Shown here: in pieces, positions 13,868-17,491 of the stretch
Numbering within the stretch: position 1 is the first letter of the stretch
Layout: every line of letters begins with the position of its first letter
DNA from: a virus
Lineage: Duplodnaviria > Caudoviricetes
IMG/VR virus record: IMGVR_UViG_3300020045_001886
Location: 1-44,797 of that record
Strand: one strand, 5' to 3'
Length of the DNA: 44,797 nucleotides
Notes under the pieces: generated by a model
The model's database searches: none
Seen by the model: the letters and a program-made list of their open reading frames with translations, nothing else
What the model was told of the DNA's origin: nothing
Position numbers and translations under genes: made by a program

Positions 13868-13944
13868 GACCCGGTAGTTCAATTGGCAGAACAGCGTGAC
13901 TCCAAATCCGCGTGTTGTAGGTTCGAATCCTACTCGTGTCGCCA
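13868..13944 (+). tRNA. tRNA-Trp (CCA), slightly irregular
   Basis: D arm GTTC/GAAC, loop CTCCAAA, T arm GTAGG-TTCGAAT-CCTAC, encoded CCA; one acceptor mismatch and a 1-nt bulge in the anticodon stem. Confidence 0.85.
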
Positions 13945-13950
13945 GATATA

Positions 13951-14024
13951 GCCCTGTTAGTTTAATGACAGAACACCGTGACATGACTACGGAGATGAAT
14001 GTTTGATTCATTCACGGGGCACCA
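13951..14024 (+). tRNA. non-canonical/pseudo tRNA, nominal anticodon ATG (His-like)
   Basis: Full cloverleaf with GCCCTGT/ACGGGGC + ACCA, CCGTG/TACGG stem and loop ACATGAC (no U33); T loop TTTGATT; D loop lacks GG. Confidence 0.7.
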
Positions 14025-14063: not shown

Positions 14064-14411
14064 ATGGCGTTTGTTAAAGGTGTGTCGGGCAACATCAATG
14101 GAAGACCCAAGGTTTTAGATGCAGATAAGCCAACTAATAGGGTACTGCGTGAGCGATCTTTACTAGAAATGGTACGCAAATTTAGACCTTTGCAATCAAA
14201 AGCAATTGCCGCTGCTGTCCACATCTTAGATAATAAAGATGCTTCGGAGAATGGTAAGCTACGTAGTGCTGCGCTGATTATTCAGACGTATAAAGACTTG
14301 ATTAAAGAGGTCTATGACCAAAAATACGATGATTCCGAAGGTGTTCCTATGCAGGAAGATAATAAACCAGTGTTTAGTCTTCACATGATTCCGAGTAAGG
14401 ATAAAGAATAA
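14064..14411 (+). CDS. terS: terminase small subunit (putative)
   Basis: N-terminal FVKGVSGNINGRPK motif typical of this family; position upstream of terL. Confidence 0.8.
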   Translation: MAFVKGVSGNINGRPKVLDADKPTNRVLRERSLLEMVRKFRPLQSKAIAAAVHILDNKDASENGKLRSAALIIQTYKDLIKEVYDQKYDDSEGVPMQEDNKPVFSLHMIPSKDKE

Positions 14412-14500: not shown

Positions 14501-15724
14501 ATGAATTATGATTTTAGTACTGCGGTAAACACAGAAATGATTAAGTTAGCTGCTGAACGTGGAGATAGACTACTTGGTGCAGCTGGGAAGAATTACCCTC
14601 CGGGTAGATCGTGTGATTATCGTAGTATGCTCTTATCTTGTGGTCATATTCAAGATATACGCCCTGTTCATTATAGAAAAACAACAGCAACATGTCAGAC
14701 ATGTTGTACAAACAAGTTGAACGCTGTTGCTAAATCTCAAGGTCTTACGCTTTTAAGCCTAGACATTGTTCAGTACTCAAATGAACGTTTATATATTAGA
14801 AACTGTGGTCACACTGAAATTCATAGTAATGATTACTTAGAAAAGCACAAACTAGCTGAGTGTCAAAAGTGTATAAGTAGTGAAGTTGATGCTAACCTTA
14901 AGCACAAGAATTTTACAGTTGTTGGAAAACCTAGAGATGGCTATTCTATATCTTGTAACACTTGCAAGAATATAACAGTATCTAGAACGGATGTTGCAAG
15001 AAGCGGAACTCCTTTGTGCATGGTGTGTTTCTCAGAACTTTTAAAGAAAGAGGCCACAACTGTAGGTTTTACTTACCTGTCTGAAAGAGAACCAGACCGT
15101 GTTACTACAGCATCTAGGACGACTAATTATAGATGGTACTCCTGCAACACATGTAGTAATATAGATACATTTTCACATATAGCGATGCGTTTAAATAATG
15201 TTCGCTGTACTAAATGCTATCTTGAAAGACGTAAAAGCGAAGCTGTAGCTCAAGGGATGGAGTATTTAGGCTGGTCTAAAGGTATGATGCACAACTATAG
15301 ATTACCTTGCGGTTGTGAACGAGAGATTCAACCTCAGGCTGTTCTAAGAGGTATCTGGGCATGTAAAATTCATGATAACACTCATTACCACAGACCAAGT
15401 GGAATATATTTACTTGAGATTAAAACACAAGATTTCTCGTGGTTAAAGTTCGGGTTTGCTAAAGACATTGGTATTCGCATTAAAGGGTATGGTCTACCAG
15501 AAGATGCAACTATTGAAGTTATTTTCAATATTAAAGTTGATACAGGCTATGAGGCACTAGAGGTTGAGAAAAGTATTCATAGGGATTTAATCAATGAGCG
15601 TATAGACCCGTCTTTAATGAAAGAAAAGTACATGACGTTCACAGGACACACTGAGTGCTATCCGTTAAGTACCAGTCCACTAATAATTTCTAAAATGAAA
15701 GGATTCTATGAGCAAAAGTTCTAA
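14501..15724 (+). CDS. free-standing putative homing endonuclease: repeated CxxC Zn-ribbons plus C-terminal GIY-YIG-superfamily (T5orf172/MUG113-like) domain
   Basis: Many CxxC/CGH motifs; GIYLLEI..LKFGFAK..R...EKSIH...GHTEC; ATG 14501 with AGGA SD; overlaps the terL start. Confidence 0.75.
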   Translation: MNYDFSTAVNTEMIKLAAERGDRLLGAAGKNYPPGRSCDYRSMLLSCGHIQDIRPVHYRKTTATCQTCCTNKLNAVAKSQGLTLLSLDIVQYSNERLYIRNCGHTEIHSNDYLEKHKLAECQKCISSEVDANLKHKNFTVVGKPRDGYSISCNTCKNITVSRTDVARSGTPLCMVCFSELLKKEATTVGFTYLSEREPDRVTTASRTTNYRWYSCNTCSNIDTFSHIAMRLNNVRCTKCYLERRKSEAVAQGMEYLGWSKGMMHNYRLPCGCEREIQPQAVLRGIWACKIHDNTHYHRPSGIYLLEIKTQDFSWLKFGFAKDIGIRIKGYGLPEDATIEVIFNIKVDTGYEALEVEKSIHRDLINERIDPSLMKEKYMTFTGHTECYPLSTSPLIISKMKGFYEQKF

Positions 15725-17491
15725 GAAAATAGTAATCGCACCAGCTAGTAAAAAGCAGGAAATGTATATTAACGATGACGCAGATGTTGTTATCTTTGGT
15801 GGCGGAGCAGGCTAGCCGGTAAGAGCTTTCTAGGGGCTATGGATGTTCTTAAACATACAAATGATCCAAAATTCCGCTGTCTAGTTGTGCGAAGGATAAG
15901 TCCACAAATACATGGTCCCGGAGGAATCTTTGAAACTTTCGTTAACCTACATCGTGAGGTATACGGTAGTGCATTAAAGATTAAGAAGCGCGACGGAATT
16001 ATTGAGTACCCAAATGGAGGTACTGTTTCATTTAGACACTGCCAGTATGAGGAAGATAAGCATTCGTTCCAAGGCTGGCAATTAAGCATGGCTGACTAGA
16101 AAGTTATTAGACGAGGCCCAACAGTCACTTGTGGTAGCTGTTGTAAAATCCCTTGAATTGCTGGAATCCCCTTAGAGCCTGTAAGCTACAACATAGTTAG
16201 AAATGACAAGTGTGAACGCTTAAAAATTACAGGATTGGGCAATCAGCAGCTAAGACCCGTACAGGGTAAAGTTCAACGACTATTCCGTAAGGAAGTAGAG
16301 GTAAGTGCCTCGAAGCGGGGGAGTACGAAAGTACATGATATAGTCTATTCTGGTAACGAAAGTATCAGCAGCGAAAGCGGTTTAAGTGGTAACGTACTTA
16401 AGCGAATTCTAGTAACACAATCTCAAGTCATTTATATTATGTCCAGACTTCGGTCTGAGGCAGATATGCGCCCTAAAATGCGTATGACTTGTAATCCAGC
16501 AGGTAAGGGGCACTGGTTAACAAATTGGCTTGAGTGGTATCTATTACCAAGCGGTTTACCAGACCCTGAACGGTGTGGTGTACGTAGATACTTCACTATG
16601 CGTGATAATGAAATGGTTTGGGGTAATTCTGAGGAAGAAGTTAGAAACCTTATTCCGGGTTGCTCACCCCTAAGTCTAACCTTCATAAATGCAAACGTAT
16701 ACGACAACCCCATCTTAATGGAGAGGCAACCAGAGTACGTAGCATGGCTTGAAGGTCAAGACCGTGAGACTAAAGAAGCACTACTTTATGGTAATTGGTA
16801 CGTAACAAAACAACAAGAGAACTACTACCGTAGAGCTTGGAGTACTGTGGTGCATGAAGCCCCGTATGTAGCCCGTAGAGCACGCGGGTTTGACCAAGCA
16901 GGTAGTTTGAAGGATGAGGTTAACAAAGACCCAGATTATACCGCTACTGTTCTTATGAGTAAGACTAAAGAGAGTCGATACACAATTGAGCATAGTAATA
17001 GAATTCGTGAAAGATACCATACAGTAGAACAGTGGATGTTTGCACTTAATGAAACAGACGCTAGTGATATTACTTGGATTCTTCAGGTTGATCCGGGTGC
17101 AGCAGGTAAAGCATACGCAGCAAGTCTTCAGAAGCAACTAGCTGAAAAAGGCAGACACTGTGTACTTCAACCGTTAAGTACTAAGAGTAAGCTGATTCGT
17201 TTTCGTCCATTAGCATCTATTGCACAGGCTGGTTATCTTGATGTTGTATCCGCTGATTGGAATGACTGGTTCTTCGATGAATTAGAACAGTTTAGAGGCG
17301 ACGGTAAAACTCACGATGATGCACTTGATGCTGCAGTATCTGCATTCTGGTACTTGAATAAGACTATGGAACTACCCTCCTTCACCCTGCCTGATCTACA
17401 CCAGTCTAACTCATATTCTAACCTCGGCTTCTCCCATCCGGTATTACCTCAAGGTGAAGCACCTAGGATTATACAGGGAGAATTCCAGTAG
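15708..17491 (+). CDS. terL: terminase large subunit, interrupted: exons 15708-15813, 15816-16093, 16104-16125, 16413-17491 (1485 nt, 494 aa joined)
   Basis: Joined protein reads VIFGGGAGSGKS (Walker A), QGWQLSMALLDEAQQLTQSQVIYIMSRLRS (Walker B), MTCNP, DNP..YGNW, and nuclease motifs FDQA, PDYTA, HDDALDA. Confidence 0.9.
15814..15815 (+). other. 2-nt insertion (AG) in terL Walker A, creating TAG and a frameshift
   Basis: GGC T[AG]CC GGT AAG AGC; removal gives G-S-G-K-S (removing TA at 15813-15814 gives G-A-G-K-S). Confidence 0.8.
16094..16103 (+). other. 10-nt insertion (GACTAGAAAG) just before terL Walker B, creating TAG and a frameshift
   Basis: ATG GCT [GACTAGAAAG] TTA TTA GAC GAG; removal restores QG-x8-DE spacing; exact boundary could slide by 1 nt. 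Confidence 0.8.
16126..16412 (+). mobile_element. ORF-less group I intron (IA-type core), 287 nt
   Basis: P1 exon CAACAGU pairs with IGS GCUGUUG (U16125.G16137 wobble); P10 UUGUGGUA/UAACACAA; P AAUUGCUGGAA, Q AAUCAGCAGC, R GUUCAACGACUA, S AUGAUAUAGUC; extra hairpins between R and P3'; terminal G16412; splicing restores the frame. Confidence 0.95.

Follow-up and report, generated by a model that had tools for sequence, protein, structure and literature searches.

How can a large terminase be made from a gene whose reading frame is broken twice? This question is raised by terL, the large terminase gene, in the stretch of phage DNA analysed here, 44,797 nucleotides (nt) long (IMG/VR record IMGVR_UViG_3300020045_001886, positions 1-44,797; hereafter the window; the phage record is about 54% complete). 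The gene carries an insertion of 2 nt in the Walker A motif (site A) and another of 10 nt before the Walker B motif (site B), beside a 287-nt group I intron. From sequence comparisons we consider it probable that both insertions are micro-introns, devoid of a catalytic core and of a guide of their own, which are excised from the terL pre-mRNA by the neighbouring ribozyme through a guide encoded in exon 3.

Reading of terL starts at ATG 15708 and proceeds through …FGGGAG into a TAG at Walker A; a new frame then runs from GKSF… to QGWQLSMA and a second stop. The Walker B sequence LLDEAQQ is read in the third frame and, after the 287-nt intron, terL continues to 17491. The parts of the gene are as follows.

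15708..15813, + strand: terL exon 1, from the start ATG through the U of GGCU in Walker A
15814..15815, + strand: candidate micro-intron A (AG), 2, 4 or 5 nt in relatives, its register set by the Walker A Ser
15816..16093, + strand: terL exon 2, 278 nt, with GGCU at its 3' end; Pfam Terminase_6N
16094..16103, + strand: candidate micro-intron B, 10 nt; 6-11 nt in relatives
16104..16125, + strand: terL exon 3, 22 nt, Walker B LLDEAQQ; the proposed guide lies in it, as does the 5' strand of P1 of the main intron
16115..16118, + strand: proposed exon-encoded guide GGCC, made up of the last base of GAG and the whole of GCC; its predicted helix with GGCU, an alternative P1 (P1'), has U.G at the cut
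16126..16412, + strand: group I intron without an open reading frame (ORF), 287 nt, no P2; P1 3' strand 16137-16143; P7 16278-16282/16341-16345; Rfam RF00028
16413..17491, + strand: terL exon 4; Pfam Terminase_6C

By their limits the four exons sum to 1485 nt and encode a protein of 494 amino acids (aa). Both insertions were as a preliminary description of this DNA had reported them, namely AG at 15814-15815 and 10 nt at 16094-16103, each following GGCT, ending in AG and creating an in-frame TAG. When the 492-aa intron-free terL of relative G001 was used as a tblastn query, the extra nucleotides amounted to exactly 2 at site A and 297 (10+287) at site B. The insertions are real and no slip of assembly. 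Site A was bridged without gaps by contigs of independent sequencing runs (X1 records 4 and 5, X3 record 19), and a diverged 465-nt contig of run X5, with 71 other letters, spans both sites, its four gaps lying elsewhere and cancelling out. The statement that the other virion genes are intact held for genes shared with five relatives, against which tblastn revealed no further split gene in the window. Likewise, tblastn among six records detected no micro-intron in other genes, the sole flagged stop (G002) preceding the start codon.

To follow the insertions among relatives, we collected terL loci from IMG/VR, 15 by protein search and 18 and 20 by profile searches, of which 7 carry the intron, 11 are close relatives without it and 2 are distant terLs. 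We then ran four DNA patterns. The first specified the intron P1 only and gave 42 IMG/VR matches, 7 terL loci and 35 unrelated sequences; the second required GGCT…AG at site A; the third and fourth, for site B or A, left the ends of the insertion free and allowed lengths of 1-27 or 1-29 nt. All four, including those blind to the intron and to the boundaries, retrieved the same 7 IMG/VR contigs. A scan of metagenomes for the intron alone found 7 loci, one of them a duplicate of an IMG/VR contig, and 7/7 had both inserts. In total, inserts were present at both sites in all 14 intron-carrying contigs, the window included, and in none of the 11 close relatives lacking the intron, though several of these have other group I introns elsewhere in terL. 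The 14 contigs represent about 11 lineages: two pairs are 94-97% identical, the window intron is near-identical to that of L060, and the other lineages are 67-81% identical in their exons. The expectation that the inserts co-occur only with the intron was therefore borne out by the four patterns as well as by the metagenome loci. The observation itself is real and far from chance.

Searches further afield were negative. Among GTDB genome contigs there were 0 matches to the site-A pattern and 0 to the intron pattern, and no full-length intron occupied site A or B in the 20 IMG/VR terL loci, where other introns lie at different positions. Such an intron would have marked the inserts as collapsed introns, an origin that remains a mere possibility. 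Related introns of ICP1, Vibrio 1.232.O, nepoznato and FPSV-D18 had no micro-insert in the flanks inspected, which were not compared with intron-free alleles. The intron of Flavobacterium phage FPSV-D18 (L141) is a related P2-less group I intron in Walker B of a helicase-like gene, whose upstream exon is open and free of micro-inserts. The 50,697 GenBank phage records contained no isolate closely matching the region, blastn matches being confined to the intron core and terL homologues staying below 60% identity; the nearest named phages, which we take to be Pakpunavirus-like and Felix-like records, are about 40-44% identical in terL.

Across the carriers we counted 29 inserts (18 distinct, 2-11 nt long), every one of them preceded by GGCU and ending in AG (29/29 for both). 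Their interiors are A-rich and variable, with lengths of 2, 4 or 5 nt at site A and 6-11 nt at site B. The 29 include a third insert, of 10 nt, in exon 2 of the complete genome G006 (L015:3081-3090), which obeys the same GGCT…AG rule and is flanked by a short direct repeat. Every site A insert, together with the exon T, makes an immediate stop (TAG, TAA or TGA), and the frame-preserving B inserts of 6 and 9 nt (five sequences in 6 contigs) all contain an in-frame stop. Some inserts resemble short duplications of the flanking exon, and others the 3' end of the intron.

Protein conservation fixes the register in which such pieces would have to be removed. At site A, U|…G is the sole register yielding Ser, the residue found in 27 of the 29 homologues with a readable Walker A (Cys in 2, Ala in 0); for site B and the third site, the conserved protein results from this register and from one other. 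We rejected the C|U…A|G register, which at the third site gives Arg where homologues have Leu or Ile in 50/51 and Arg in 0/51. The U|…G boundaries put forward in the preliminary description for two inserts accordingly hold for 29/29.

The exons on either side of the inserts are under purifying selection. Among carriers, mean proportions of nonsynonymous (pN) and synonymous (pS) differences in exons 2 and 4 were 0.13-0.14 and 0.77-0.84 respectively (exon 2: pN 0.127, pS 0.84), and the highest pN/pS over 91 pairs was 0.25 and 0.26 for exons 2 and 4. G006, which has direct terminal repeats and is 100% complete, has one terL; in this one complete relative no intact second copy exists that could stand in for the interrupted gene. 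(The ends of the G006 assembly overlap within the main intron.) Because of the selection on the exons and the single terL of G006, the gene is very likely functional. A functional terL with inserts of differing length means in turn that the pieces must be precisely removed, and removal from the RNA would be the only single mechanism we found that fits.

The neighbouring intron carries the group I core, P3 to P9 with the G-binding site in P7, and matches RF00028 at 53 bits (cut-off 50) over 16096-16368; its ends were set from the intron-free relative L001. A 7-base-pair (bp) P1 ending in U.G (11/11) is followed by a short A-rich linker and then P3, with no P2. In an alignment of 11 intron sequences (72-98% identical), 98.9% of cells were paired and 26 of 68 named pairs had two-sided changes, a covariation far above slid controls, with P7 invariant; judging from these alignments, the ribozyme is maintained by compensatory changes. 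The terminal G is present in 14/14. The preliminary description had the full intron, like the inserts, ending in AG, which is the case in 12 of the 14 carriers, the other two ending in CG. The intron P10 strand tracks changes in exon 4, and the intron's own guide strand is for this reason accounted for by its own splicing.

The inserts themselves lack a catalytic core, being 2-11 nt long, and share no internal pairing element; the conserved partners of GGCU all lie outside them, so that they have no guide or P1 of their own. They do follow the group I end rule, with a 5' exon ending in U and a last base G (29/29). By membership they are not group I introns but look like substrates of one.

What, then, could direct the ribozyme to these sites? 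The tetranucleotide GGCC lies in exon 3 within the codons GAG GCC, just 5' of P1, and can pair with GGCU as G-C, G-C, C-G and U.G. GAG-GCC was found in 14/14 carriers and 0/11 non-carriers, including 0/6 of those non-carriers that also encode Glu-Ala. The cut sites follow suit, the Gly codon at site A being GGC in 14/14 carriers vs 0/11, and G-GCT occurring at site B in 14/14 vs 4/11; neither the boundary-blind patterns nor the metagenome pattern had imposed letters of the guide or sites. Such invariance is rare elsewhere. Among codons sampled in exons 1, 2 and 4 of the 14 carriers, 0/45 two- or three-fold and 2/38 four-fold codons were invariant, and those two are the GGC and GCU of the cut sites; 11 less redundant rows gave 2/45 and 2/39. 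Within exon 3 the Leu and Asp codons just ahead of GAG do vary, with 7 forms of the former and 2 of the latter.

When we scanned without bias for sequences that could pair with GGCU and are conserved in 11/11 introns with their exons, exon-3 GGCC ranked as the strongest, and this one gives U.G at the cut. The other four were a P5 motif, a P7 strand, the intron guide and site B's own GGCU. We discarded the P5 UUAGAGCC motif, which complements GGCU but yields U-A; unrelated introns, too, have UUAGAGCC/UUAUAGCC motifs of this sort. When the window was folded locally, the guide helix directly adjoined P1 in the minimum-energy structure, with a pair probability of 0.67. A side-by-side layout of this kind is familiar from P1 and P2 of other group I introns. 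The U.G pair is reported to matter for P1 docking (PMC1891724). A contact of P9.0 type may be available, the penultimate base being A in 29/29 inserts and a U following P7 in 13/13 introns read; for a P10-type contact the micro-inserts offer only 2-3 possible pairs. On these comparisons exon-3 GGCC is probably the working guide.

We propose the following sequence of events. GGCU at site A or B would pair with exon-3 GGCC (U.G, C-G, G-C, G-C) to form an alternative P1, which would stack on the intron's own P1 hairpin, the latter acting as P2. Once this alternative P1 has docked in the core, guanosine would attack after the U; the last G of the insert would then enter the G site, its A pairing with the U after P7 in a P9.0-like manner, and the exons would be ligated as in engineered trans-excision-splicing (TES). 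The intron would then self-splice via its own P1 and P10, so that the micro-introns are probably removed before the intron removes itself. One guide would serve two sites in the window and three in G006. That the 287-nt intron's ribozyme is what excises the inserts we regard as highly likely, more so than any one choice of guide. The interpretation given in the preliminary description, in which core-less satellites are removed by the neighbouring ribozyme, is supported by comparative evidence, now with a concrete guide.

Several observations weigh against this model. The carriers are related to one another, so the counts given above are not independent. The P1' helix never varies across carriers, and covariation is therefore uninformative about the guide. 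Of 14 local folds, 4 gave P1' a probability of at least 0.37, another 3 one of about 0.1 and the other 7 one of about 0; the local fold of the window was no better than shuffles (z=-0.2), and a longer fragment folded without P1'. As isolated duplexes, the intron guide strand outbinds the exon guide at site A in 13/13 and at site B in 11/13. The motif GGCU-N(0-12)-AG occurs 213 times in the window, which is chance level, and a further GGCU without insert lies in exon 2 of 8/14 carriers. A 4-bp guide being unspecific, the sites would have to be singled out by their proximity in cis, and low yields may result. We looked for a tether that could serve site A, which lies 300 nt away from the guide, and found no 5-6 bp pairing covering GGCU. 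In sequencing run X4, presumed to be of RNA, no contig crossed the junctions, a result that counts neither for nor against excision. The order of splicing is left unexplained by the model. The first codon of exon 3 (16104-16106) is TTA in 14/14 carriers vs 5/11 others, an invariance that is only partly explained: the UUA may supply a 2-bp P10 or avoid a competing G. Finally, 19 of the 60 database protein homologues begin just after Walker A, and their DNA was not read; given these 19, an insert without the intron could exist outside IMG/VR.

The alternative that survives best keeps the same ribozyme but takes the intron's own P1/P10 strand as guide, with GGCU shifted by one base, which places U-A at the cut, and exon GGCC incidental or a mere aid. 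Duplex energies speak for it, at -4.6 to -18.7 kcal/mol for the intron strand vs -4.7 to -6.3 kcal/mol for the exon guide. A helix of this strand with site B and its insert dominates the local folds of L063, L059, L067 and L070 (probability 0.96-1.0), displacing P1, and in L061 a G at the shifted position would restore U.G. We nevertheless think it unlikely. The shifted guide places U-A instead of U.G at the cut in 13/14 carriers, and if it docked in the normal register the cut would fall at C|U, giving the wrong frame, or Ala in Walker A (0/29 homologues) and Arg at the third site (0/51). Its sequence is already fixed by the main P1/P10, tracking exon 4, and the GAG-GCC invariance would go unexplained. 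The long intron-strand helix has a probability below 0.1 in 10/14; where it forms, it may instead delay splicing of the main intron, a brake that we mention as speculation. The intron strand UAGCUGU, one register off, was the guide envisaged in the preliminary description; its pairing is real, and dominant in 4/14 local folds, but it is probably not the working guide, a canonical U.G guide being available in exon 3.

Removal of the inserts by another agent, be it another ribozyme acting in trans or a protein endonuclease and ligase of phage or host, appears very improbable. The incompleteness of the window leaves room for such an agent, and terL of some carriers (G004, L066) contains further group I introns. 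In the complete carrier G006, on the other hand, a group I scan matched the terL intron and nothing else (the model fails on some introns, such as one in L130), which disfavours the ribozyme in trans from elsewhere that had been considered earlier. Relatives with other terL introns but not the 287-nt type have no inserts, and both the U|…G ends and the U.G helix are group I signatures.

It is more doubtful still that the RNA keeps the inserts and that the ribosome gets past them by hopping, frameshifting, stop read-through or an altered code. Like recoding signals, which can have these traits, the inserts are very short and have a stop at their start or within them, and hopping in T4 gene 60 provides a precedent for ribosome bypass. 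Yet the shift required would differ between genomes, because the inserts measure 2, 4 or 5 nt at A and 6-11 nt at B, with TAG, TAA or TGA as stops; nor is there a matching landing codon by which Walker A or B would be restored. An altered code is opposed by the use of all three stops at the ends of ordinary window genes (13 ORF ends checked). Bypass would account for neither the linkage to the intron nor the terminal AG. Least credible of all, that the alleles are dead copies in defective phages or errors of assembly has in its favour that all the sequences are metagenomic assemblies with no closely matching isolate among the GenBank phages, and against it the recurrence across 14 contigs and sequencing runs from other studies, with varied lengths and fixed ends, the strong purifying selection downstream of the stops and the one terL in a complete genome.

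We return to the excision of the inserts by the intron's ribozyme and ask how an allele of this kind could have spread. Two ORFs precede terL.

14064..14411, + strand: probable small terminase subunit, 115 aa, tentatively so named for its place and its similarity to the ORF that immediately precedes terL in relatives without the intron; weak Pfam DUF5681 match, E=5e-4, below cut-off
14501..15724, + strand: free-standing T5orf172/MUG113 (GIY-YIG-like) nuclease ORF, a putative homing endonuclease, 407 aa from ATG (431 aa from TTG 14429); Pfam T5orf172 E=0.01, below cut-off

Orthologues of the nuclease ORF in other carriers score better, with E=1e-7 for T5orf172 in L067 and the MUG113 cut-off passed in L011 and L064, and its Atlas neighbours carry T5orf172. 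Of 13 carrier ORFs scanned (all but that of L058), 9 matched T5orf172/MUG113 (E 1e-7 to 0.04, mostly weak), 2 NUMOD4/HNH_3 and 2 no nuclease family. Immediately upstream of terL there is a nuclease-type ORF in 14/14 carriers vs 1/9 non-carriers, L002 and L009 being left out (Fisher p=1.8e-5, with lineages that are not independent). In a tree of the C-terminal part of terL, carriers were scattered, with 7 changes, at least 3 of them forced by strongly supported branches; they formed one clade in 0/200 bootstraps, and one carrier was sister to a non-carrier at 100/100. Because of the 14/14 vs 1/9 distribution, the upstream nuclease is likely to spread the whole block by collaborative homing.

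Further features were noted in this region and beyond. After the probable terS and ahead of the nuclease ORF, 14417-14482 matches Rfam int-alpA (41 bits, above cut-off), an element that could control how the nuclease gene is translated. Upstream of terS, two tRNA-like genes occupy 13868-14021, the second of which has an unusual anticodon loop when aligned to Rfam, and at 1168-1444 a perfect 37-bp tandem repeat of 7.5 copies is non-coding and possibly an origin- or terminus-associated array. At the start of terL, a contig of run X4 that carries the nuclease ORF (aligned to window 15733) departs from the terL frame after Ile-Gly, possibly owing to another intron. In this phage group terL is a hotspot for group I introns, found before Walker A, at the QG motif and at two places in exon 4 (L008-L010, L012, L013, L007, L014, L064, L066). 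The portal gene of G003 has a 980-nt insertion. An 815-aa homologue, P0026, diverges at the Cys of Walker A (GGGAG-CFD…) in what looks like an intein, almost at the position of insert A.

How does this locus compare with known systems? In three reports (PMC2532722, PMC4094466, PMC6155759), engineered TES ribozymes use a group I core to excise 1-28 nt in vitro, and 1 nt in Escherichia coli. The likeness to these TES ribozymes or 'spliceozymes' lies in an internal piece that follows a P1-held U and ends in G, with ligation of its flanks; the window differs in that the case would be natural, in an essential gene and in cis, with the guide in the substrate's coding exon, several sites and a ribozyme that is also a normal intron, its activity being predicted from sequence. 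The 'degenerate' group I introns of fungal small subunit ribosomal DNA (PMC3160393) are 56-81 nt long and keep putative P1, P7 and P10, one being reported to self-splice. They too are reduced group I-type inserts without most of the core, whereas inserts of the window type, compared with these PaSSU-type introns, are 2-11 nt long, without a helix of their own and apparently dependent on a neighbour.

Phage genes with multiple introns, small exons and exon skipping are on record in Twort orf142, SIOphi terL and phiNIT1 (PMC11878797) and in the ICP1 tape-measure gene (PMC10448857). They resemble our case in having several splice events per gene, terL included, and in that a ribozyme using its neighbour's splice site produces exon skipping; they are ordinary group I introns, and the available text of both papers describes no 2-11-nt intron or exon-encoded guide. 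Collaborative homing is exemplified by ICP1 terL with a T5orf172 gene (PMC10448857, PMC3984707). Here a T5orf172 or HNH ORF similarly lies directly upstream of a terL whose intron lacks an ORF, with a patchy distribution on the tree; the mobile block would differ by adding micro-inserts, and the role of the nuclease is read from sequence. A search of the open-licence PMC and bioRxiv literature found no natural micro-intron removed by a neighbouring ribozyme.

If the proposed reaction takes place, a length of 2 nt would put these natural introns near the lower limit of size, and a reaction that, in the open literature searched, is otherwise described only for engineered ribozymes would have a natural example. 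We think it rather likely that the arrangement amounts to a natural miniature spliceosome, in which one group I ribozyme, with its guide in the codons of a micro-exon, removes two or three introns of as little as 2 nt before itself, new ones being possible at any nearby GGCU, and which may shield the allele from homing endonucleases. The group I intron would be a multi-substrate splicing enzyme with an outsourced guide, a step from self-splicing to dependent introns that models of spliceosome origin assume. With its 800 nt, the system would be tractable in a tube, and ribozymes for the repair of small insertions would have a natural model in it. Where a phage gene next to a group I intron looks 'frameshifted', its RNA may in some cases likewise be intact. 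For the phages themselves, once the excision activity exists, small GGCU…AG insertions would be tolerated, which may also disrupt endonuclease sites, and the intron would become indispensable and impossible to lose alone, a ratchet that would fix a selfish intron in an essential gene.

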